A DNA stretch of 63,764 nt from Archangium sp. (lineage in GTDB: Bacteria > Myxococcota > Myxococcia > Myxococcales > Myxococcaceae): assembly GCA_030681645.1 (NCBI GenBank), contig JAUXRX010000045.1, positions 1-63,764 of the forward strand. Direction: 5' to 3'. Below are positions 812 through 61,874 of this stretch, in pieces. The notes under the pieces were generated by a model. That model searched no databases and was not told the origin of the DNA. It was given only the letters and a program-made list of their open reading frames with translations. The stretch's first letter is position 1. Each line of letters starts with the position of its first letter. Made by a program: the position numbers and the translations under genes.

Positions 812-3759
812 TCACTGCTTGACGACGCCGAGATCCACGTAGGCCTGGTTCACCATCACCACGTAGGGGCGCTGCTCGAACTTCAGGCCGCCCTCGCCGT
901 CGTGCTCGATGATCTCCAGCTTGCCCATGCCCGCGCCCATCGGCCCGATGGAGTAGTAGTGGGCCTGGAGCGTGTACGGCGCGGCGCGCTTTCCCTTCGG
1001 CAGGCGGATGGTGAAGCACTCCGGGCCGTAGCCGGTGGTGACGTCGGCGTAGAGCTCGCCACCCGACGGCAGCACCTTCGACGAGTAGTACGCGTGGCCT
1101 CCCTTCGCGTCGTAGATGTGGAAGTCGACGTCGTTGGCGTCGGTTTCCCAGTTGAGGACGAAGCGCAGCGAGGGCGCGTTCTCGGTGACGCCGCCGATGG
1201 CCTTCAGCTTCTGCGCGATCTCCGCCTTGCGCGTCGGCTCGGCCTTGCCCCACGCCGCGGCGATGAGGCCCGCGTCTTCGCGCAGAATGCGGTCCACCCC
1301 GAGGAAGCGGCCGCCCGGGTACGTCTGCTTCACGCCCACGGTGATGGCCTCGAAGGCCTTTTCGAACTTGCCGGCGCGCACCAGCGCGAAGGCGAGCAGG
1401 CGGTGACTGGCCGGGTGATCCGCGCGCTGCTCTGCAGCCCTGGCATACGAATCGGCGGCCAGCTCGAGGCCGGTGGCGAGGCGCTCGAGGCGCACGCCGG
1501 CGAAGCGGCGCAGGTCGGCGCGGGCAGGGAAGAGGTCGATGATGCTGCCGTAGGCGCGCGCGGCGGTGCCGAGGTCGCCCGTCTTCTCCAGCGCCTCACC
1601 CAGCGCCACGAGCGCCAGGAGATCGCCGGGCTGCTCTTCGTGCCAGCCGTGCGCGAGGGCGAGCGCCTTCGGGGGGTCACTCTTGAGCCCGTCCATCACG
1701 TCCTTGAACTTGCCGGTGTACGGATCCGGCCCCTTCTCGGGGATCGCCACGGGCGCGGCCGTCGCAGAGGGCGTGGTCACCGGCTGCGGAGAGGGACTCC
1801 TCTCCGAGCGGCGCGGCTCGGGCGCGCGGGGATCAGCCGCGGGCACGCGCATCGACGGGGCCGGCGGCGGCGGGGCGGGAGCAGGGTCGACCACCTCGGC
1901 CTGGGGTTCGGAAGGCCTCTGCTCCGACTCCTTCTCCTCCTCGGCCATCGCCATCTTGGGCGCGTCCATCACGCCGTCTTCGTCGCCGCCCCGCTTGCCG
2001 GCGGACGCGCTGCTGTCCTTCGAGCTGTCCATCTTCTTCTCGGCCTTCAGCTTCTCCATCGGCTTGGCCGGCTTCGGCGTGGGGGGCGGCACCTTCGCCA
2101 CCACCGCCACCACCGACTCGGCGCTGCGCTTCTGGCTCTTCACCTGGCCGTTCTCCACGGTGAGGATGTCGGCGAGCGCGCGGCGATCGATGTTGAAGCG
2201 CGCGTAGTCAGCCTCGGTCTCGAGCACGAGCAGCGCGGTGAGCGACGAGAGCACGCGGCTCTTCACCGACACCTCGACGATGTCCTTCTTGAGCTTCTCG
2301 CGCTGCGGCGCGCCGTCGGCCTGGTCGAGCTGCGCCTGGAGCGAGTCGATGCGCGCCTTCGCCCACGCGCGCTCGAGCAGCGGGCGCTCGATGGACGCGA
2401 GCTGGGCATCGGCCACCGGCAGCGCCTTGCCGCCGACGGAGATCTTGAACTGCGCACCGGGCTTCAACTGCGCGTACACCAGCACCGCGTCACCGGCCTG
2501 CACGCCCGCGAGCATGGTGGGCCAGACCGCGGTGGCGCCGTCGACCTTCACCTCGAGCTTCGACTTCGTGGCGAGGCTCAGGCGGCGCGCCAGTTCGACG
2601 GGCGCGAGGCCTCCATCGAGCACCGCGCCATCGCGGCTGAGCGAGCCGGTGGTGAGCCGCGCCAGCGCCGCTTCGTCGCGCAGGCCGCCCACGGTGATGG
2701 CGTCGATGCGCTGCACGCCCGCGGTCTTCGCCTTGAGCAGCTGGGCGACGAGGTTCGGGCCCTCGGTGACGCCGGCCGTCATCACGCCGTCGGTGATCAA
2801 CAGCGCGCGCGCCGTGGGCTTGCCCTGCAGGTGCTTGAGCGCCAGCTCGACGTTGGACGCTCCCAGCGCGCGGCGGGCCCGCAGGGTCTTCGCCTGGGCG
2901 TCACCGAAGCCGGACGCGGGGCCCGAGTAGATCGGCGCGAGGTCCTGGTCGAACGCCACCACGCTCACCTGCGGCTCCAGGCGCTGCTTCGCGAGCGCGG
3001 CGAGCAGTTGCTGCACCAGCACCACCTGCTCACGCCAGCCCAGCGCGCGCGAGCCGCTGGAGTCGACGAGCACGGTGAGCGCGGTGATCGGGTCAGCGCC
3101 GGTGCCGTCGACGGGAATGACGCGCGCGGCGACGAGGTCACCCGAGCGCACGCCCACCTGGTTGCGCTTCGGCGCGGCCACGAAGTCGGCGTTGGGCACG
3201 AAGCGCTTCTTCGCCAGCACGCCCTCGCCGGTGACCCCGGTCACCTTCACGTCGAGCTCGCCCACCTCGGGCAGGCCCTCGAGGGGCAACACGTAGTTGG
3301 CCGTGGTGGCCACCAGCTCGTGCGAGTACGAGAGCACCACTTCCTTCACGCCCCTGGCGGGAATGGGGAAGACCTTCGCGGTGAACTCGTTGCCGCCGCT
3401 CTGCTCGAGCAGCGCGGGGTCCTGCCGGCGGTGAAGGAAGTCTTCGTACGCGCGGCGCGCGGCCTGGCGCTCGACCACCTCACCTTCCTGCCAACGGCCG
3501 TCGAGCTTCATGGCGAAGCGGCTCACCGTGGCGCCCGCGGGGAGCGTGACCTTGAACTGGCCTTCGATGACGCGGTCGAGCGGGTTCTCGAACGAGAGCG
3601 TCAGCTCGGTGAACGCGAGCGGGTCCATCACCACCGCGCGGGCCTGGAGCTTGATGAGCTTGAGGCCGGTGCCGTCAGACGCGGTCAGCGAAACCGGCGC
3701 ATCGGAAGCGGCGGCGAGCGACGACAGCGACACCACGGCGAGCAGGAGCGGGAGTCTCA
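812..3759 (-). CDS. secreted VIT (vault inter-alpha-trypsin) + von Willebrand factor A + TPR domain protein, ~982 aa
   Basis: The signal peptide MRLPLLLAVVSLSSLAAASD follows an ATG at ~3759. A VIT-like N-domain (KLIKLQARAVVMDPLAFTELTLSFENP...) is followed by a vWA MIDAS-like region (LVDSSGS), a TPR-like region and a C-terminal conserved domain. The track ORF is extended to 5209 by read-through over the divergent gene. Confidence 0.8.
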
Positions 3760-3795
3760 TGGATGACCTTCGACACGCGGAGAAGGGAAAGAGGT

Positions 3796-3813
3796 CCCCT
3801 CTCAGGGAGAGGG
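3796..3813. repeat. short perfect palindrome CCCCTCTCAGGGAGAGGG (REP-like family member)
   Basis: Seen directly in the divergent intergenic region between the VIT-vWA and membrane-protein genes. Confidence 0.6.
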
Positions 3814-3838
3814 CCCAAAGTAGTGTACGAGGGCGCTG

Positions 3839-5266
3839 ATGACTGACGAGGGAAAATCCAGGGGAGCGATCTGGTTGGCGCTGCTGGCAGGAGCGATCGT
3901 GCTGGGCACCGGGCCCGCCGTCCTCGCCTTCCTCCTCTTGCTGGGCTCGGACGGCGCCAGCGGCCTCGCGCAGCTGGTGATGGAAGGCGGCGGCGCCAGT
4001 TATGCCGTGCTCTTCGCAGGCGCGCTGGCCAGCCTCATCGGCGCCGTGCTCGCGGCCCTCTCGGTGCGGCGTCCGGGCCTGCCCGCCTCCCTCGCCCTGG
4101 TGCCCTTCGTCCTGCCGGTGCTCGCTGCGCTGGGTGGAGTCATCGTGGGCATGCGCGGCGTCCTCGACGCGGTGACGCACGTCGCGCCCGCGGACAAGGC
4201 CACCATCCTCGCGGCGGCCACGGGAGAGCTCACCTCGTTGTGCATTCAGTCGCTGGCCTTCGCCGCGGCGGGTGCGCTGGCGGTGGCGGTGGCTGCGTTG
4301 GTGAGCCTGGGCGCGCCGGGCCGTGGGGGCCGGCTCCTGACGGTGCTGGGCGCGGGAACGCTCGGCCTCTCGCTCGGCTCCTCGGCCGCGCAGGACATGT
4401 CGATGCGCAGCGGCTTCATGGCGCTGGCGCACGTGAGCCCGGCTGATCGCCTCACCCTCCTCATGGGCGTCATCGAGGACTGGCAGCGGATGAACCAGGT
4501 CTCCAACGCGCTCTTCCTGCTGAGCCTGGCGGTGACGGTGGTGGGCGCGGCGGTGCTGGCGGCGCGTGGGCAGCGGGGCGCGGGCATCGGGGTCGCGGCC
4601 GGGCTGCTCGTCGCGGCGGTGGGCTTTCGGGGCTTCAACGCCATGTCCGAGCGGCAGCTCGCGGGCGTGCGCGACGCGGCTCCACGGGCCGAGCTGATGA
4701 CGGTCGGTGGCCTGGCTCCCCTGAGCTTCAGCACCGTGGCCCTCGAGGACGATGAGCCGGTGCGAATCGACAACCTGGTGCTGCTCCGCGCGCGGTTGAA
4801 CGAGCCGGGTCAGGCGTGGGTTGGCGTCGAGCTCGGGCTGACGCTCAGGCCCCAGACGGTGCTCCGCGCCCTCCAGGCCGCGCACTTCGTGAAGGCGGAG
4901 GTCGAGCTCGTCGGCCAGGCCCAGAAGAAGAACCTCGAGGCGCCGCCCATCTTCGCGGCGGCCGTGGCGGCGATGAGCGACGTCCAGCTCGCGGCGCCGG
5001 TGCGGGTGCTGTACGCCGAGGAGCCCTGTGAGCAGTGCGTCCTCGCCACGCTGACGCCGGCGGGGCTGAAGGTGGGCGAGGTCGAGTGGAAGCAGGAAGA
5101 GGTGCCCCGCTCGGCGGAGGTCCAGACCTTCCCCCTGGTCGAGTTCGCCTGGTCGAAGAACACCGGCGAGCTCGTGCGTGCCGCCCTCATCGCCCTCTCG
5201 CATCAGCACATCCTGGTGGTGCGGGTGCCCCTGCCGGACCCTCCGGTGGTGCTGCCGGATTATTGA
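3839..5266 (+). CDS. polytopic membrane protein, hypothetical
   Basis: It is a 475-aa ORF whose N-terminal ~300 aa are strongly hydrophobic with multiple predicted TM helices, and whose C-terminal part is soluble. It is divergent from the VIT-vWA gene. Confidence 0.6.
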   Translation: MTDEGKSRGAIWLALLAGAIVLGTGPAVLAFLLLLGSDGASGLAQLVMEGGGASYAVLFAGALASLIGAVLAALSVRRPGLPASLALVPFVLPVLAALGGVIVGMRGVLDAVTHVAPADKATILAAATGELTSLCIQSLAFAAAGALAVAVAALVSLGAPGRGGRLLTVLGAGTLGLSLGSSAAQDMSMRSGFMALAHVSPADRLTLLMGVIEDWQRMNQVSNALFLLSLAVTVVGAAVLAARGQRGAGIGVAAGLLVAAVGFRGFNAMSERQLAGVRDAAPRAELMTVGGLAPLSFSTVALEDDEPVRIDNLVLLRARLNEPGQAWVGVELGLTLRPQTVLRALQAAHFVKAEVELVGQAQKKNLEAPPIFAAAVAAMSDVQLAAPVRVLYAEEPCEQCVLATLTPAGLKVGEVEWKQEEVPRSAEVQTFPLVEFAWSKNTGELVRAALIALSHQHILVVRVPLPDPPVVLPDY

Positions 5267-5338
5267 TCCCGGTCATTGGTGGATCCGCGGCGGCGAGCAG
5301 GGCTACCCTCCCGCCTCCACTCGCAGCCGAGGTTGCCC

Positions 5339-5662
5339 ATGCCCAAAGTCACGTCGAGCCGAGCCAAGACCGTCGCCGCGCCGAAGAAGCCTGCCGCCAG
5401 GCCGAAGGCGAAGGCCACCGAGAAGAAGGTCGCGCCGAAGAGCACGGGCTGGACCGCGAAGGGCGGCACGAAGAAGACCACCGTCGGCGGGCGTGGCAGT
5501 GACGTCTCGACGCGTGACTCGCGCGAGCGCGTCGCGAACCTCTACGTGGGAGGCCGGGGCAGCGACAACTCCACCGCCGACTCGCGCCGCCGCATCGCCG
5601 ACATCTACGCGGGCGGGCGCAGCAGCGGCTCGAGCTACAACGGCGGCGGCCGCGGCAGCTGA
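5339..5662 (+). CDS. small lysine/alanine-rich (histone H1/AlgP-like tail) protein with internal GGRGSD..S..DSRRR.A..Y repeats
   Basis: The ATG at ~5339 gives MPKVTSSRAKTVAAPKKPAARPKAKATEKKVAPK..., followed by two copies of VGGRGSD-ST-DSRxR-A-Y. A REP-like element lies just downstream. Confidence 0.4.
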   Translation: MPKVTSSRAKTVAAPKKPAARPKAKATEKKVAPKSTGWTAKGGTKKTTVGGRGSDVSTRDSRERVANLYVGGRGSDNSTADSRRRIADIYAGGRSSGSSYNGGGRGS

Positions 5663-5667
5663 TCCGT

Positions 5668-5739
5668 TCTCCCTCTCCCTGCGCAGCGGGGAACGGCGAA
5701 CTCGCGCCTCGAGGGGAAGGAGGGCCGGGGTGAGGGGCC
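5668..5739. repeat. REP-like element: CCCTCTCCC..GGGGAA + 20-bp motif + GGGGTGAGGGG
   Basis: The sequence is tccctctccctgcgcagcggggaacggcgaactcgcgcctcgaggggaagg...ggggtgagggg. Confidence 0.7.
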
Positions 5740-6653
5740 CAGTGACGAAACACACCATCCGGTTGCGAGAGTTCGCCGCGAGCAAGCTGAAGCGCCTCGC
5801 GCAACCCGGTGACGCAGTCGCGATCACGGGCTCGGTCGCCAGAGGTAACGCGAGAGCCGACTCCGACCTCGACCTGTGGATCCTCGGGACCCGCAGCGGC
5901 CGCTCCGTGCGCCGCCTCGAGGGAGTGAACGTCACGCTGCTCTGCCAGACGCCGGCGGAGGCAGAGCACTTCGACAACCTCTGCCTCTACGAGGTCGACG
6001 ATCTCGTCGTCCTCGAAGACGGCTCAGGCGCGTTCGCGCACCTCCAGGAGAACTGGCGCAAGCACCGCCGCCGCATCCGCGCTGAGATCATCCGCTCGAC
6101 CGAGGCGCAGGTGCGTTGGGAACTCTCGCGCGCGGAGCAGGGGAGCGCGTTGCACCGGTCGTCCTTCCTCCGCTTCGCGGGTTGGCGGCTGATGTGCCTG
6201 CGCGTGTACATCGATCGCGGCTGGCGGGTGCCGCGGCTGCACACGCTGCGTGAGCAGGTGCCGGCGGCGTTGAGGAAGCACCTCGACGCGACGCTCGGGC
6301 TGCCTTCTGCCCCGGTGTGCCGTCGCGCGGTGAAGTGGATGCCTGCTGCGCTGAAGGAAGTGCAGGCGATCGCCGGGCGCGATGGCTACGCGCTGCCTGA
6401 GTCGATCGCCGAGAAGGCGAAGCTCGCTCCTGAGGAGGCCGCGCTCGTCGCTCGCAAGGAGCTGCTGCTCGAGTTGTTGCCTCGCGTGTTCCGTGAGTAC
6501 GGCATCACGGACGTTCGCGGCGTGGAGTTGCTCGGCGGCGTGGCGCCGAAGTTGCGGGCGGCGTTTCGCGCGCTCGAGCCTCGCGCGGATGCGGCGAGCT
6601 TGAAGCGCCTGCGGGGCCACGTGCTCGCCCTCGAGCGATCGCTGCGGCCCTGA
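5730..6653 (+). CDS. nucleotidyltransferase-domain protein (Pol-beta superfamily)
   Basis: The motif GSVARGNARADSDLDLWIL is a GS-x9-DxD nucleotidyltransferase signature near the N-terminus. The track ORF from 5178 is an upstream extension over the REP-like element. The start is a GTG at 5730 or 5742. Confidence 0.6.
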   Translation: MRGPVTKHTIRLREFAASKLKRLAQPGDAVAITGSVARGNARADSDLDLWILGTRSGRSVRRLEGVNVTLLCQTPAEAEHFDNLCLYEVDDLVVLEDGSGAFAHLQENWRKHRRRIRAEIIRSTEAQVRWELSRAEQGSALHRSSFLRFAGWRLMCLRVYIDRGWRVPRLHTLREQVPAALRKHLDATLGLPSAPVCRRAVKWMPAALKEVQAIAGRDGYALPESIAEKAKLAPEEAALVARKELLLELLPRVFREYGITDVRGVELLGGVAPKLRAAFRALEPRADAASLKRLRGHVLALERSLRP

Positions 6654-33084: not shown

Positions 33085-35933
<2,849 letters not shown>

Positions 35934-35934
<1 letters not shown>

Positions 35935-37355
35935 TGTCGCTCCTCCACGCGCGCTTCCTCGAGCCGGAGTCCCTGCGCGAGCAGCTGCGCGCGGTGCCGC
36001 ACAGGGTGCTCGAGGCGACCTTCGACACCGGCACGCTCGGTGACGAGGCGGCGGCGGCGCTGGCCGCCACCATCTTCCGCGCCGGTGAGCCGGGCGGGGT
36101 GCTCGACCTCGAGGGCGCCAGCAACTGGGAACAGCGCTTCCACCTCATCGCCTCGCTCGCGCTGACCGACGACGCGCTGGCCACGCAGCTGCTCGAGGGC
36201 GGCTGGCTCGATCGCCGCGGGGTGGGCGCGTTCGCGTTCGGCTCGCTCCCCCTGCGGGTGGTGGCCCGGCAGGTGAACAAGACCTCGCTGCGCCAGGCGC
36301 GTGAGGCGGTGCAGTTCGGGTGGGAATCAGAGCTGCTCAACGTGCTCGAGAGCAGCGCGATGCGGGCCGAGCGGGCGCCCGAGGAGCACGTGGTGCTGCT
36401 GCGCCGCGGAGATCTGTCCAGCCCCCAGCCTTCGCGCACCGAGGCGCTGCAGATCTCCACCCTGCTCAAGGAAGTGCGCGCGCACGGCGCGACCGATCTC
36501 ACCCTCACCGTGGGGCTGCCTCCGACGCTGCACGGCGCGTTCGGCAGCAAGGCGCTGGGTGAAGCGCTGCTCACGCCAGATGAAGTGGCTGACCTGGTGA
36601 GCCCGGTGTTGCCCTCGTCGCTGCTCGCCGCGCGCGGGCCGGTGGTCCACTCCGTGGCGTCGACCGAGCTGGGGCGCTTTCGTGTCACCGTCACCACCGA
36701 GCGCACCTTCCGCGCCGCGACCTTCCGCGCGCTGCCGTCGGCGATCCCCACGCTCGATGAGCTCGGGCTCTCTCCGTTGGTGCAGGGCCCGCTGCTGCGC
36801 CTCGAGCGCGGGCTGCTGCTGCTGAGCGGCGAGCCGGGCAACGGGCGGAGCACCCTCTACTCGGCGCTGCTGCAGCGCTTCGTGGCTGACGGGCGCCACG
36901 TCGCTTCGCTCGAGGAACCGCTGGGCCTCCCGCTCCGTCCCGGACCGGGCGCGGCCCGGCAGTCGATCCTCGGCATGGACGCCGACCTGTCCGACTTCGC
37001 GCGCGCGACGCGGCTGCAGCCGCTCGACGTGGTGGGCTTCGACCTGGTCGACGACGCGCAGGCCCTCGATCTCGCGCTCGACGCCGCGATGGACGGCCGC
37101 CTCGCCGTCTGCGTCTTCCGCGCGCCCAACGTCACCGCCGCGATTCACCGCGCGGGCGTGCTCGACGGCAAGCACCACCGCCGCCGCCTTTCCGAAGGGC
37201 TGGCCGCTTTCATCTACCAGCGGCTCTTCCCGCTCGACGGCAAGCACGTGCTCGAGGTCGACTTCCACCTCCCCTCGATGGCCCTGCGCCGCCACGTGCG
37301 CGCGCACGAGACCCCGCCGCCGCCGATCGTGTTCGAGACCGACTCAGTCGGCTGA
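35934..37355 (+). CDS. PilT/PilU-like secretion-ATPase paralog with degenerate Walker A (likely catalytically inactive)
   Basis: The PilT N-domain-like region is TDLTLTVGLPP...GRFRVTVT. Walker A reads GEPGNGRST (Lys to Arg), and the Walker B/Asp box lacks the catalytic Glu. The ATG overlaps the gyrB stop (TGATG). Confidence 0.7.
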
Positions 37356-37361
37356 ACGAGT

Positions 37362-37414
37362 GTCTCCCTCTCTCCGAGGGGAAGGGCGAACTCGCGCCTC
37401 GAGGGAGAGAGGAG
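37362..37414. repeat. REP-like element with embedded 20-bp motif between convergent PilT-like and recF
   Basis: The sequence is tctccctctctccgaggggaagggcgaactcgcgcctcgagggagagagg. Confidence 0.7.
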
Positions 37415-37527: not shown

Positions 37528-38649
37528 TCAGCGGTGCTCGGGCGAGATGCGGCCCGCGTGAACGCGGTACCACTTCGTGTCTGCTCCGGCCGCGCGCGTC
37601 ACCAGCGCCGCGTCGGTGGTGGTGAGCAGCGTCTGGGCGCCGCTGTCGGCGAGGTAGCCCATCAGGAACGCGTTGCGCTCGGGGTCGAGCTCGCTGGACA
37701 CGTCGTCGAGCAGCAACAGGGGCAGAAAGCCGTTCTGCTGCTGCAGGTTCTCGATCTCGGCCACCTTCCAGGCCAGCACCAGCGCGCGGCTCTGGCCCTG
37801 GCTGGCGTAGGCGCGCGCGGGCTTCTCGCCCAGGGTGATGTCGACGTCGTCGGCGTGCGGCCCCACCGACGTGAAGCCGCGCTCGACGTCGCGGGTGAGG
37901 CGCGCGTCGAGGCGCCCCAGCATCTGCGCGGCGAGCTCGGCCTCCGACGCGGTGCCAAAGACGATGCCCTCGCCCAGGTGCGCCGGTTCGTAGCTCCACT
38001 GCGCCTCGAGCGGCGAGCGGCCGATGCGCTGGAACGCCGCGCGCGCCCGCTCGACCAGGCTGACCATCAGGCCGCGGCGCCGCACCCACAGCCGCGCCCC
38101 CAGCTTCGCCAGGGTGGCGTCCCACGCCTGGAGGTGGCTCATGGGCGCGCGGTCCTTGAGCAGCTTGTTGCGGCTCTTGAGCGCGCGGCCGTACTCGCGG
38201 CTCTCGTCGAGGTAGCCGGGCACCACGTTGAAGACGCTGCGATCGAGGAAGGCGCGCCGGCCGTCGGGCCCGCCCTTCACCACCGCGAGATCGTCGGGCG
38301 TGAAGGCCACCACCGACACGCCCCCGAAGTAGGCGTCGAGCGAGTGGGCGCGCTTGCCGTCGACGAAGGCGGTGCGCCCCCCGGGAATGACCTCGACCGA
38401 GATCTCCCGCTCGGCGCCCGCGATGAGGAAGCGGCCCGTCACCTTCGCGCTCGGCTCCCCGAAACGAATGAGCTCGCTGAGCTTGTTCGCGCGCAGCGGC
38501 TTGAGCGTGGCCAGCAGGTACAGCCCCTCGAGCAGGTTGGTCTTGCCCTGGCCGTTCTCGCCCACGGCGATGGTGGCGTGCGGCGACGGCTCGAGCGAGA
38601 TGGGCTCGAGGTTGCGAAACCGCTCGTACGAGAGCGAGAGCAGCTTCAC
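37528..38649 (-). CDS. recF: DNA replication and repair protein RecF
   Basis: The GTG start gives VKLLSLSYERFRNLEP...VGENGQGKTNLLEG, aligning with E. coli RecF MSLTRLLIRDFRNIE...VGANGSGKTSVLEA. The ABC signature and D-loop are present. Confidence 0.9.
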   Translation of the reverse strand: MKLLSLSYERFRNLEPISLEPSPHATIAVGENGQGKTNLLEGLYLLATLKPLRANKLSELIRFGEPSAKVTGRFLIAGAEREISVEVIPGGRTAFVDGKRAHSLDAYFGGVSVVAFTPDDLAVVKGGPDGRRAFLDRSVFNVVPGYLDESREYGRALKSRNKLLKDRAPMSHLQAWDATLAKLGARLWVRRRGLMVSLVERARAAFQRIGRSPLEAQWSYEPAHLGEGIVFGTASEAELAAQMLGRLDARLTRDVERGFTSVGPHADDVDITLGEKPARAYASQGQSRALVLAWKVAEIENLQQQNGFLPLLLLDDVSSELDPERNAFLMGYLADSGAQTLLTTTDAALVTRAAGADTKWYRVHAGRISPEHR

Positions 38650-41000
38650 CGCAGGCTGCGCACGTGCCGCGCCACCTGCAGCACCTGGTCGTCGAGGAAG
38701 AGCAGCAGCCTGTAGGTCTGTTCTTTGCCAACGGGCGGATCCACCGAGACGAACAGCCGGCCGGGCTTCGCTTCCGTCGGGCGGAACAGGCCGCCGTCGC
38801 GCATCCACGGCTTCGGGTTGGCGCCTTCGAGCGTCACCTCGCGCCAGCTCATCGGGCGGTTGATGCCGCCGTCAGGGAAGCGGTTCTGCAGCTTGCCGTT
38901 CACCACGTCCCACCCGGCGATGAAGACGCCGGTGGTGGCGTAGGCGACGGGCCACCCACCGAGGTTCTCGTAGTCGAGCACCTGGGGCGGCACCTCTTCG
39001 TTGGCCGGGAGCGGCTCGGCGAGCTCGTACCCACCCGGCAGCGTGGAGATCTGCCCGTCGCTGAAGCCCACCCGGCCCAGCGCGCTGCGCGTCGAGTCGA
39101 ACCACACCTCGAGCGGCTCGCCGCTGCTCAGCTCGAGCGGCGTCGAAGACCAGCGCAGCGGGTTTCCACCCAGCTCCCAGGCGAACACGTCGCGCGAGGT
39201 GACCAGGTACCCGCGCGCGTAGTCTTCGCCGGTGCCCAGCGGGGTGCGCTCGAGCGCCAGGCTGCGAATCGGCACCGAGGGCTCGGGCGTGAGGTCGGGC
39301 GTCACCACCTCGTCGGAAGGCCGCAGCGAGAGCTGCTGGTCGGGGTTGCTGACCCGGTACAGGCTGTCGTCGGCGGCGAGGAAGAAGATCACCCCGCCGT
39401 CTTCGAGGGTGAAGGACTCGCCGCCGATGGTCGAGCCGATCGGCTCTCCCGACGCGCGCACCAGGGCCGGCCCGAAGCGGGGGAGCGCGGGGCCGGGCTC
39501 GGTCCTCAGCGCCACGAGGTCGCCCGCGGTGCTCACGCCCCAGTTGGCGATGCCATGCACGAAGCCCCCCAGCCTCGCGTCGGGCCCGAACCGCAGCTCG
39601 TCGGGCAGTACGCGCCTGAAGCCGTTGTGGAGGCCGGTCTGGCCCGTTGCCTGCTGCACCGCCACGTAGTCGTCGGTGAGCGCGGCGGTGACGGGCACGC
39701 CCCCGACCTCGCCGGGCGCCACGTCGAGGGGCACCCGGTCCAGGTAGGCGGGCCGAAGCGACGAGATCGACTCGCCCGTCCACACCTGCCCGTGCTGGCC
39801 ACCCAGCAGAATGCCCGCCTGGGAATCCCACGAGGCGGTGGCGAAGCGCCGCGCCTGGGGAAGCAGGTCGATCTCCTCGGTGGTGCACCGGTCGGTCTGG
39901 CTGCGCGCGATGCTGCCGGTCACCACCACGGCGTCGAGGGCACCACACACGAGCTCGATGCGGACCGTTCCGGTGGCGGTCGTCGGTGAGATCTGCGCGG
40001 GCGGGTCGGTCACGTCGCAGGGCCTGCAGTCGGGCCACGCGCGCGTCAGCGTCAGCCCGGCCGCGGTGGACAGCACCTGGAAGGTCGAGAGCACGTTGCC
40101 CCGCTCCACCACCACCACCCGCCCCGCGACGTCGGTTCGGATCGTCCCGGGGAGCGTGCTCATCGGCAGCGGATCCAGCGAGACGTCGGCCGCCTGTCCT
40201 CCATCGAGCGTGTGCAGCTCGAGGGTGTCGTTCTTCAGCATCACCAGCCACAGGGCGTTGACCGTGGGCAGGCCCGCGACGTCGTCGTACCGGCCCGTCG
40301 CGTTCAAGAGGGGCTCGAGGGTCCACGCGTTCGCCGACTGCTGCCGCACCACGCTGACCTGGGTCTGGTCCCACACCACCGGCGTGGCGAGCGACGCCAC
40401 CAGCACCCCGGCGTCGAAGGAAAGCTCGGGAACGACCACGTCGCGGAACTGCCCGGTGGGCAGGGGCGCCACGGTGCCCGTCTCGAGATCGCCGACGGCG
40501 AGCCTCAGCGGGAGGTGGATGAGCACCTTCCGCGCGCCGGTCGCGTCGGTGAAGGGCGCCAGCGGTGGCGGTGGCCCGGGCGGGAGCATCGGCGGGAGGG
40601 CCACCTGGGTGAGCTGCCCCAGGAAGTCGAGCTCGAACACCTGGAGCGCGCCGTTGGCGTCCTTCATCGACAGGAAGGTGCTGCCGCCGGGCAACACCTC
40701 GCGGGTGACGAACTCGACCTTCTGGTTCAACACCAGCGGGTGGAGCACCGCCCCCTCGCCGCTGCCCGGGCCGAACGTCGGCACCGTCAGCCCCAGCCCT
40801 GCCTCGAAGCGTGGGCCCTCGTAGATGTACTTGCGGCACACGTTGTTGATGCCGCACACGTCACCGGGCTGGCAGACCGCGTCGCGGAGCCCCGGCCCTT
40901 CCGAGAAGTCGCACGGGTAGGCGTTGCCCTGCTCGAGGTAGAGGCCGGTGCACGCGGCCGCGGCGACGAGGGGAAGGAGCCACCACAGACGGCGCCACAT
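38646..41000 (-). CDS. large secreted lipoprotein (~785 aa), hypothetical, Cys-rich N-terminus
   Basis: The start MWRRLWWLLPLVAAAACTG carries a lipobox. The stop overlaps the recF GTG start (GTGA). The track ORF is extended to 43706 by an antisense Arg-rich extension. Confidence 0.65.
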   Translation of the reverse strand: MWRRLWWLLPLVAAAACTGLYLEQGNAYPCDFSEGPGLRDAVCQPGDVCGINNVCRKYIYEGPRFEAGLGLTVPTFGPGSGEGAVLHPLVLNQKVEFVTREVLPGGSTFLSMKDANGALQVFELDFLGQLTQVALPPMLPPGPPPPLAPFTDATGARKVLIHLPLRLAVGDLETGTVAPLPTGQFRDVVVPELSFDAGVLVASLATPVVWDQTQVSVVRQQSANAWTLEPLLNATGRYDDVAGLPTVNALWLVMLKNDTLELHTLDGGQAADVSLDPLPMSTLPGTIRTDVAGRVVVVERGNVLSTFQVLSTAAGLTLTRAWPDCRPCDVTDPPAQISPTTATGTVRIELVCGALDAVVVTGSIARSQTDRCTTEEIDLLPQARRFATASWDSQAGILLGGQHGQVWTGESISSLRPAYLDRVPLDVAPGEVGGVPVTAALTDDYVAVQQATGQTGLHNGFRRVLPDELRFGPDARLGGFVHGIANWGVSTAGDLVALRTEPGPALPRFGPALVRASGEPIGSTIGGESFTLEDGGVIFFLAADDSLYRVSNPDQQLSLRPSDEVVTPDLTPEPSVPIRSLALERTPLGTGEDYARGYLVTSRDVFAWELGGNPLRWSSTPLELSSGEPLEVWFDSTRSALGRVGFSDGQISTLPGGYELAEPLPANEEVPPQVLDYENLGGWPVAYATTGVFIAGWDVVNGKLQNRFPDGGINRPMSWREVTLEGANPKPWMRDGGLFRPTEAKPGRLFVSVDPPVGKEQTYRLLLFLDDQVLQVARHVRSLR

Positions 41001-44454: not shown

Positions 44455-45179
44455 TTGGCCCCACAATCCCCCGACGTGCAACTGAATCACGCCCAGCGGG
44501 AACTCACCGTCAAGATCGTCTATTACGGCCCCGGTCTTTCGGGGAAGACGACCAACCTCCAGATGGTGCACCAGCGGACCAGCCCCGAGGTCCGCGGGCG
44601 GCTGCTGACCGTCGAAACCCACGACGATCGCACGCTCTTCTTCGATCTGCTGCCCGTCTTCTTCAGCACCGCCAACGGCTTCAAGGTGAAGGTGAAGCTG
44701 TTCACCGTGCCCGGCCAGGTGATTCACAACGCAACGCGGCGAATCGTGCTCCAGGGGGCTGACGCGGTCGCCTTCATCGCCGACAGCCGCCGCGCCGCCG
44801 CCGCCGAGAACAACGCCTACTGGAAGAACCTCGTCGAGAACATGAAGGAGAACAACCTCGACCCGGCGCAGGTGCCGGTGGTCATCCAGTACAACAAGCG
44901 CGATCTGCCCGACACGAAGACGGACGCGGAGATCGAAGAGACGCGCAAGAAGGGCAAGGAGCCGGTCGTCGGGGCGATCGCCATTCGGGGCGTGGGGGTG
45001 CTCGAGACGCTCTACGCGGTGCTGCAGTCGGCCTTCCGCAGCCTCGAGGCGCGGGCGGGCCTGACCAAGAACATCGGGCTGGGCGAGAAGGAGTTCCTCA
45101 CCCAGGTCTTCGCCAACATCGACATCAGCGGCACCGAGCTCGAGAAGCTGCTGCCTCCGAGGACACCGGGGGCGCGCCC

Positions 45180-45183
<4 letters not shown>
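44455..45183 (+). CDS. MglA-like small Ras-family GTPase
   Basis: [21 protein letters not shown] aligns with MglA [34 protein letters not shown] and IQYNKRDLPD are conserved. An alternative GTG start lies at ~44476. Confidence 0.85.
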
Positions 45184-46655
<1,472 letters not shown>

Positions 46656-61158: not shown

Positions 61159-61197
61159 GTTGCCGTGGTGACGTGGTTGTCATACGTTATGTATGAC

Positions 61198-61455
61198 ATG
61201 AGTACCCGAATCAACGCCCGCATCGACGACGAGCTGAGCCGTCAGCTGGAAGAGCTGCGCCGACGCTCGGGCCAGACCCTCACTGAGGTCATCGAGGCCG
61301 CGATCCGCGCGTGGACGCAGGAGCAGCTCGGAAAGCGTCCCTCCGCCGCGGAGGTGTTCGCGTCCACCGGCTTCATCGGGTCGGGCGACGGACCGCGAGA
61401 CCTGGCCCGCAATGCGAAGAAGTACCTCTCTGAGTCGCTCAAGAGGAAGGCGTGA
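61198..61455 (+). CDS. ribbon-helix-helix antitoxin (VapB-like)
   Basis: It starts MSTRINARIDDELSRQLEEL, which is RHH-like, and it overlaps the start of the downstream PIN gene. Confidence 0.6.
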   Translation: MSTRINARIDDELSRQLEELRRRSGQTLTEVIEAAIRAWTQEQLGKRPSAAEVFASTGFIGSGDGPRDLARNAKKYLSESLKRKA

Positions 61456-61874
61456 TCATCGCGGACACAGGGTTCTTCGTTGCGCTGGCCAATCGAGGCG
61501 ACAAGGACAACGAGGCCGCGGTGAAGGCCCTCGGGAAGCTGCGGGAGGGGCTGGTGACGACCTGGCCGGTCGTGACCGAGACGACGCACCTGCTTGCTAC
61601 GCGGTCGGGCACGCATGCGCTGCTGGCCTGGGTGGCGAGCGCTCGCGCGGGCGCCTTCAAGATCTTCGAGCTGAACGCAGGGCACTGGCTTCGGCTCGAG
61701 GGGTTCATGAAGCACTACGCCGATTTGCCAATGGACCTTGCCGATGCGTCGCTCGTGTTGCTTGCCGAGGAGCAGAACGACGGGCGGATCTTGTCGACCG
61801 ATCGCCGCGATTTCCGGACGTATCGCTGGAAGAAGCGGAAGCCTTTCAAGAACCTGCTCGATCTCGAAGACTGA
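61452..61874 (+). CDS. vapC: PIN-domain ribonuclease toxin VapC
   Basis: The N-terminus reads IIADTGFFVAL, conserved acidic residues are present (TETT...D.AD), and it is about 140 aa. The GTG overlaps the upstream TGA. Confidence 0.8.
   Translation: MIIADTGFFVALANRGDKDNEAAVKALGKLREGLVTTWPVVTETTHLLATRSGTHALLAWVASARAGAFKIFELNAGHWLRLEGFMKHYADLPMDLADASLVLLAEEQNDGRILSTDRRDFRTYRWKKRKPFKNLLDLED

Follow-up and report, generated by a model that had tools for sequence, protein, structure and literature searches.

PilT-like ATPases share universally conserved features, namely the Walker A and Walker B residues, a catalytic Glu, two arginine fingers, an Asp-box Glu and a His-box His (McCallum et al. 2017, PMC5424180). 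Walker A binds the phosphates and the Asp-box Glu coordinates Mg, while the Glu that follows the atypical Walker B (hhhhG) is catalytic; the His-box His touches the gamma-phosphate and mediates inter-chain coupling, and the two arginine fingers are supplied by the neighbouring packing unit (PMC5424180). All four motifs are kept in the four PilT proteins of Geobacter (PMC5065972) as well as in the PilT paralogues of Myxococcus xanthus, which are 58-66% identical to PilT (PMC13584747). In a full-text literature search of limited scope, we found no description of a natural pseudo-ATPase of the PilT/VirB11 family. Here, we analysed a 63,764-bp contig of Archangium sp. (JAUXRX010000045.1; G+C ~70%), referred to as the window, in which the gene that follows gyrB encodes a protein that, by alignment, is derived from PilT and in which the residues for hydrolysis are replaced while those that hold nucleotide are kept.

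The gene is an open reading frame (ORF) with an ATG start, 473 codons and a stop codon. When the single protein sequence was searched against the PDB, Aquifex PilT (2ewv) was found with E=1.4e-22, and a profile of the family found PilT with E=1.8e-44; PilT and PilU were the best PDB matches. Moreover, pilT_fam was the best NCBIfam model (E=6e-25). The protein is ~26-27% identical to Aquifex PilT, scores 88.2 bits against TIGR01420, which is below the cutoff of 319.1, and at 22.4 bits falls just short of the gathering score of 24.9 for PF00437 (T2SSE). It has the PilT/VirB11-like two-domain fold, i.e. an N2D followed by a RecA-like C-terminal domain. These alignments support the origin from PilT proposed in the initial annotation of this DNA. 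Because several features that define PilT/PilU are lacking, the protein should not be annotated as a retraction ATPase; we place it in the PilT/VirB11 fold family as a new variant.

The register of the active site was read from the alignment of the profile to five PilT chains from three species in the PDB. R305 pairs with the Walker A Lys (GPTGSGKST) in 5/5 chains; in the same chains, D370-L371 pair with the Gly-Glu of the atypical Walker B, and R389 and R396 pair with both histidines of the His box (TGHLVFGTLHT). E327 pairs with the Asp-box Glu, with LEEP opposite IEDP, and R250 and R265 pair with the arginines of GRFR and LRSLP in PilT. A different register was rejected, as the single-sequence and profile alignments agree and there is no Lys or Glu at the catalytic positions. 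All peptides quoted in the initial annotation are present in the protein, i.e. TDLTLTVGLPP at residues 187-197, LGRFRV at 246-251, FRALPSAIPTLDELGL at 264-279, GEPGNGRST at 299-307 and DVVGFDLVDD at 365-374, and its claim of substitutions at the Walker A Lys, at the catalytic Glu and in the His box was upheld by the alignments.

We determined the conservation of these positions in 46 aligned full-length homologues with 38-96% identity. R305, which replaces the Walker A Lys, is invariant (46/46), and the P-loop glycines and the Ser/Thr are retained and fixed in the family. D370, L371 and D374 are likewise each found in 46/46, so that the PilT-type Gly and catalytic Glu are replaced by Asp-Leu; in the AlphaFold model, the strand E366-370 terminates at D370. 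With Asp instead of Gly at position 370, the classical hhhhD form of Walker B is restored, and no catalytic base follows. At the His-box position, G388 is present in 46/46, R396 in 45/46 and R389 in 39/46, another 4 having Lys here. Arg occupies each of the three positions at which Lys or His was lost, so that the positive charge is maintained. In more distant members Walker A reads G(P/A)AGSGRTT, and the deepest members (P0067-69) already carry ...GSGRTT and ...LDHVD; thus, the catalytic substitutions are, as judged from these sequences, old.

Two further elements had been missed in the initial annotation, the retained Asp-box Glu and both candidate arginine fingers. E327 and P329 are each found in 46/46 homologues and E328 in 44/46. 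R250 and R265 are each found in 46/46 and have the same spacing of 15 residues as the arginine fingers R271 and R286 of PilB (PMC5424180); in this alignment-level test, the two arginine fingers in the N2D are retained in the family. The kept Asp-box Glu and the two candidate fingers argue that nucleotide binding may have been retained. The family has kept the binding half of the conserved PilT-like features, with the hydrolysis and coupling half replaced. From the substitutions, we infer that ATPase activity has been lost and that the label pseudo-ATPase, used in the initial annotation, would apply.

A search of protein sequences identified 56 relatives with 37-100% identity, nearly all of them full length, and all relatives with a named source come from metagenome-assembled genomes (MAGs) of uncultured Myxococcota. 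The ORF stays intact in homologues down to 35-40% identity. The ratio of nonsynonymous to synonymous substitutions (dN/dS; NG86, which is approximate at the 93% G+C in third codon positions found here) was 0.115, 0.141 and 0.171 for the gene against three close relatives and 0.085 for two of these relatives against each other, with bootstrap 95% intervals that span 0.05-0.22. In each of the three domains of the protein dN/dS was <0.26, and it was 0.08-0.15 in the ATPase domain; for comparison, gyrB had values of 0.14-0.21 in the same pairs. The G+C content at codon positions 1/2/3 is 0.77/0.49/0.93, and we conclude from this pattern that the ORF is coding. The AlphaFold monomer model is confident. 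In total, lost catalytic residues, purifying selection and a conserved predicted fold occur together in this protein, as would be expected of a pseudo-enzyme.

Ahead of the PilT N-domain lies a separate domain (residues 1-160), predicted to be folded, which had also escaped the initial annotation. Modelled alone with AlphaFold, it reached a mean predicted local distance difference test score (pLDDT) of 85.9 and a predicted template-modelling score (pTM) of 0.83. Its invariant residues include T32, G33, G89, G90, L92, D93, G103, L105, P106, R108, W130 and E150. No sequence match to this domain was found in the PDB, and a Pfam search at E<=10 over 20 members gave noise only. In an exhaustive search of 1.84 billion representative proteins, a profile of the domain found only 17 clusters (at 50% identity), and the family is thus small. 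All 17 clusters have an architecture of ~430-540 aa like that of the protein analysed here, or are fragments; therefore, the domain is known only fused to this PilT-like module and, as judged from the searches, has not been described before. A 276-aa protein (P0055) in which the domain (2-160) is followed by an AAA-lid-like PF17862 domain and not by a PilT module was considered as a second architecture and rejected, as it comes from a short JGI contig (1989 nt), in all likelihood a chimeric assembly.

Two independent methods gave YfbM (PDB 1RYL), a protein of unknown function, and the Neisseria DNA-mimic protein DMP12 (PDB 3W1O) as the two best fold matches of the N-terminal domain. These matches are weak and below significance (Foldseek E=0.29-0.51, probability ~0.2, template-modelling score ~0.36). 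There is no sequence-level signal to either protein, and the domain is only mildly acidic (isoelectric point, pI, ~5). We consider the modelled likeness a lead and not a classification. The linker that connects the domain to the PilT-like module is predicted to be disordered. At the other end of the protein, the alignment to PilT stops near PilT residue 310 of 372. The A-L-R..L-R pattern is kept at the position of AIRNLIRE, the following ~55 residues of PilT are missing, and the C terminus consists of an invariant LRRHxRA followed by TPPPPxxFE, in which L451, R452, R453, H454, R456, P463 and E468 are each found in 46/46 homologues.

When these features are set against PilT/PilU (TIGR01420, PF00437; Aquifex aeolicus 2EWV/2GSZ), the protein shares the P-loop glycines and Ser/Thr, the Asp-box Glu, the two finger-position arginines and, in the place of AIRNLIRE, a recognisable A-[IL]-R-x-x-[IL]-R helix. 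It differs by the Arg in Walker A, by Asp-Leu in place of the Walker B Gly-Glu, by Arg/Arg in the His box, by the extra 160-residue N-terminal domain, by a short PPPP-containing tail in place of the last ~55 residues and by its score far below the TIGR01420 cutoff. Moreover, it does not lie among pilus genes, neither in the window nor in the related loci that were examined.

Altogether, we lean towards the explanation that the protein is an ex-motor, i.e. a PilT derivative that is kept by selection as a nucleotide-binding scaffold or switch and that hydrolyses ATP very slowly or not at all. The PilT-like assembly would persist with nucleotide at the subunit interfaces and would be locked in this bound form rather than pass through the cycle. 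A partner would be engaged by the N-terminal domain and by the invariant tail at the C terminus, LRRHxRA...PPPP..FE. By ancestry, the default partner would be a component of the type IV pilus; the alternative suggested by the operon would be gyrase or DNA. Neither partner is backed across the whole family.

Several observations weigh against this explanation. Nucleotide binding and hexamer formation are predicted from conserved residues only, and the arginine fingers were assigned by alignment and spacing and not from the structure of a complex. With the Arg in the P-loop and with Asp370, where the Walker B strand ends, some hydrolysis could still take place. R305 is not absolute across the wider family, as P0061 has Val at this position; the dN/dS values are approximate at the G+C content of these genes; and no partner gene is conserved across the family.

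The working analogy for such a scaffold or switch is the archaeal protein ArlH/FlaH (PDB 4YDS, 4WIA), a member of the RecA superfamily that modulates the PilT-like motor ArlI/FlaI and that binds ATP with little or no hydrolysis. ArlH/FlaH is, however, a KaiC-like single-domain protein from another branch and not derived from PilT, and the FlaH gene is located in the archaellum operon, whereas the gene analysed here is not beside filament machinery.

As stated in the initial annotation, the ATG of the gene overlaps the stop codon of gyrB: in the sequence TGATG, the A of the ATG is the A of the gyrB TGA. The upstream gene was identified as gyrB by NCBIfam TIGR01059 (956.8 bits; cutoff 882.4) and by the Pfam gyrase B domain set; its true start is likely an ATG near 33451 (MDTPTPQ...), which is kept in relatives (MDT...). 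We did not find a Shine-Dalgarno-like motif in the 45 nt 5' of the ATG of the downstream gene. This gene would be transcribed with gyrB in this organism and in the closer clade defined below, and it would probably be translated by termination-reinitiation at TGATG; if so, its level would track the expression of gyrase B.

To follow this arrangement in relatives, one genome per GTDB species was scanned, giving 26 loci. All are in Myxococcota MAGs except L024, which is in a Thermaceae MAG and has a weak match (28% identity) that was taken to be an ordinary PilT. In the closer clade (clade A), the protein is ~51-87% identical to that of the window, and 13 loci with upstream sequence were informative. 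gyrB lies 5' of the gene and on the same strand in 13/13 of these loci. Because the genes 5' of gyrB and 3' of its neighbour differ among loci, i.e. both outer flanks vary, the pair is the only constant adjacency in clade A. The two genes overlap by 1 nt in L001, L002, L003, L005 and L014, as in the window, and are separated by 1-12 nt in L007, L009, L012 and L020, by ~105-120 nt in 2 loci, by 545 nt in L008 and by 2.9 kb in L010. In L010 (MAG STL-MYX2), the interval holds a gene for a 954-aa G8/CEMIP beta-helix protein (3119-5983, + strand), and the PilT-like gene must there be expressed without translational coupling. In the closest relatives (L001, L003 and L011), three extra minus-strand genes, among them one for a cadherin/Big_9 repeat protein, lie between the PilT-like gene and recF; all three are absent from the window.

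By contrast, gyrB was not found within 5-6 kb in eight deeper-branching loci (35-42% identity). In these loci, a gene for an FAD/FMN oxidoreductase is located ~1 kb 5' of the PilT-like gene and histidine kinases are frequent. gyrB was also not seen near three more distant members, nor on the 2.4-kb contig of a fourth (P0067), and the most distant members lie near radical-SAM or CheA-like genes. In a neighbour-joining tree, which is rough and in which the context of P0061 was left out, all gyrB-linked genes fall into one derived clade. With 13/13 clade A loci linked and none on the deeper branches, the linkage to gyrB thus arose, on this tree, once and is derived and clade-specific. The gyrB-adjacent position noted in the initial annotation is therefore conserved in the closer clade but not beyond it. 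recF lies 0.2-5 kb away in clade A and in the deeper loci L015 and L023, which fits retention of an ancestral recF-gyrB region.

Four other explanations were considered. The first, which we regard as a tentative possibility, is that the protein regulates pili: a dead copy of PilT would co-assemble with PilT, PilU or PilB, or compete with them for the PilC platform, and would put a brake on pilus dynamics or serve them as an adaptor. PilT/PilU is the only detectable ancestry of the protein, the packing-unit arginines are retained, the A-L-R-x-x-L-R helix is still recognisable, and Myxococcota have several PilT paralogues with auxiliary roles (PMC13584747). However, a Pfam scan of 49 ORFs of the window found no pilus-family domain, there is no second PilT-like gene in the 63.7-kb window, and no pilus gene is present among the neighbours examined in related loci. 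In addition, the protein lacks the ~55 C-terminal residues of PilT, and the M. xanthus paralogues, at 58-66% identity to PilT, all keep the canonical motifs (PMC13584747); the protein is ~26-27% identical to Aquifex PilT.

It is unlikely, in our view, that the protein is an active ATPase with an unorthodox chemistry, in which Arg305 would take over from the Lys, the classical Walker B Asp would be Asp370 and another acidic residue such as E328 would activate water. Purifying selection is strong on the ATPase domain too, and all three lost basic or polar catalytic residues changed to Arg, by which the positive charge near the phosphates is preserved; yet the position of the catalytic Glu is Leu in 46/46 homologues. 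In RecA-like ATPases, a change of the P-loop Lys to Arg, as in RecA K72R, still allows ATP to bind but slows its hydrolysis by a factor of hundreds, which counts against an active enzyme. The hhhhD Walker B restored by the Gly-to-Asp change is that of other ASCE (additional strand, catalytic E) ATPases (PMC5424180), but activity in the PilT family reportedly depends on the Walker A Lys, on the catalytic Glu and on the His box (PMC5065972, PMC5424180).

A role in DNA topology appears similarly doubtful. The protein would be made together with GyrB, would bind gyrase or DNA through its ring and would modulate supercoiling or replication-linked repair, with the N-terminal domain as a DNA-mimic-like or protein-docking module. 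This would account for the overlap of the start codon with the gyrB stop codon, for an adjacency that is kept in clade A despite changing flanks, for the proximity of recF and for YfbM and DMP12 as the best fold matches of the N-terminal domain. However, the linkage arose once within the family and is missing from all deeper branches, an unrelated gene separates the two genes in L010, and the mildly acidic N-terminal domain is unlike typical DNA mimics. Moreover, an arrangement with recF close to gyrB is ordinary and ancestral in bacteria, and the location of the gene may be due to hitch-hiking. A precedent for a link to DNA is PINA (PDB 5F4H), a PilT-like ATPase of archaea with a PIN domain, which has been described as a Holliday-junction helicase of the RuvB type; PINA, however, keeps the catalytic motifs, is an active ATPase, has an N-terminal PIN domain and shares only the fold (17% identity). 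A more specific proposal, which we consider very unlikely, is that one lineage of Myxococcota diverted a PilT-derived ring away from pili to serve gyrase or DNA as a partner that senses nucleotide without hydrolysing it, is co-translated with GyrB and makes contact via the N-terminal domain and the arginine-rich C-terminal helix. If this were true, the cellular ATP status would be linked to supercoiling or replication-associated repair.

Finally, a decaying paralogue, as suggested in the initial annotation, or a pseudogene that is merely still open was consistent with the lost catalytic residues and the scores below the curated cutoffs but is refuted by the dN/dS values of 0.08-0.17 with bootstrap upper bounds <=0.22, by the 46 intact full-length homologues in which the substituted residues are invariant, by a codon-position G+C typical of expressed genes and by the confident AlphaFold fold.

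The features of the locus are listed in Table 1. In the window, a gene for an HxlR-type regulator sits 5' of gyrB, and recF is convergent to the gyrB pair. The true start of recF is likely near residue 54 of the ORF, as relatives align from residue ~54. The term replication-gene neighbourhood, used in the initial annotation, holds for gyrB and recF but not further, since dnaA/dnaN domains were absent from the 49 ORFs scanned. The 172-nt gap between the PilT-like gene and recF contains a hairpin of ~20 bp, 9 nt past the stop codon, that is possibly a bidirectional terminator without a T-run. A consensus terminator scan did not call it, terminator-like matches were at chance level, and the RNA fold of the whole 181 nt around it was unexceptional (z=-1.5). 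No sigma-70-like promoter was found in a promoter scan. Membership in a defence system was considered and dropped, as PADLOC gave no match for the PilT-like gene and the matches of the adjoining ORF, which is recF, were of the generic SMC/AAA type.

Table 1. Coordinates of gyrB, the PilT-like gene with its predicted domains and motifs, and recF in the window.
Feature	Position	Strand	Basis
gyrB, DNA gyrase subunit B	33400..35934	+	longest ORF, GTG start at 33400
Stop/start overlap TGATG, gyrB/PilT-like gene	35932..35936	+	sequence
PilT-like gene, putative PilT-derived protein with replaced catalytic motifs	35934..37355	+	ORF, PDB matches, codon-position G+C
Family-specific alpha/beta N-terminal domain (predicted), residues 1-159	35934..36410	+	AlphaFold domain model
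Variable linker, residues 160-170	36411..36443	+	pLDDT below 50, length-variable in family alignment
PilT N-terminal (N2D-like) domain, residues 171-270	36444..36743	+	aligns to PilT residues ~5-105
Candidate arginine fingers R250, R265	36681-36683, 36726-36728	+	alignment and spacing
Walker A/P-loop GEPGNGRST, residues 299-307, Arg305 for universal Lys	36828..36854	+	alignment
Asp box LEEPLGL, residues 326-332, with Mg-coordinating Glu E327 kept	36909..36929	+	alignment; role from PMC5424180
Walker B region DVVGFDLVDD, residues 365-374	37026..37055	+	register from PilT alignment
His-box position DGRLAVCVFRA, residues 387-397, both His replaced by Arg	37092..37124	+	aligns to TGHLVFGTLHT
ALRRHVRAHE (residues 450-459, PilT AIRNLIRE position), then tail TPPPPIVFE...	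37281..37352	+	alignment
Hairpin, ~20 bp	37364..37414	+	RNA fold
recF, convergent to the gyrB pair	37528..38808	-	NCBIfam TIGR00611 297.1 bits, cutoff 172

Several other genes of the window were recorded. In the region 5' of recF (38808-41000), an ORF of 661 aa (38872-40857, - strand) has no match in Pfam, NCBIfam or PADLOC. It is conserved in relatives only over the C-terminal ~140 residues, and its homologue always adjoins recF there; the ORF failed a codon-bias filter in the window and passed it in relatives. A gene for an Arf/Ras-like small GTPase (44455-45183, + strand) and the start of a gene for a PocR-sensor histidine kinase (45180-46655, + strand) overlap by 4 nt, which suggests a coupled pair. 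A ribbon-helix-helix gene (61165-61455, + strand) likewise overlaps by 4 nt a PIN-domain gene (61452-61874, + strand) in a toxin-antitoxin arrangement of the VapBC type. A 770-aa protein (16447-18759, + strand) contains the shoulder domain of the major vault protein (E=6.5e-30) together with a Vault_3 repeat, and nearby genes encode a 1465-aa VIT-domain protein (E=1.7e-23; 812-5209, - strand) and an R2K-type ATP-grasp protein (15555-16448, - strand); together, the three look like a bacterial vault-protein-like cluster. Finally, an 845-aa EF-G-like GTPase (10461-12998, - strand), in which the GTP-binding domain begins only at residue ~172, is, provided that its start codon was called correctly, a paralogue of EF-G that is much extended at the N terminus.

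The reach of the finding is limited by the small size of the family and by named-source members that are all uncultured. If the protein is truly non-catalytic, it would be, as far as the literature was searched, the first natural pseudo-ATPase found in the PilT/VirB11 family. In this family of proteins, three motor features that are universally conserved in PilT/VirB11 have been replaced and the replacements fixed, while the nucleotide-holding ones have been kept; this amounts to a natural experiment that separates the parts of the active site for binding and assembly from those for hydrolysis and coupling. Homologues are labelled in their sources as twitching motility protein PilT or pilus retraction ATPase, and such labels inflate the apparent number of retraction motors in the genomes of Myxococcota.

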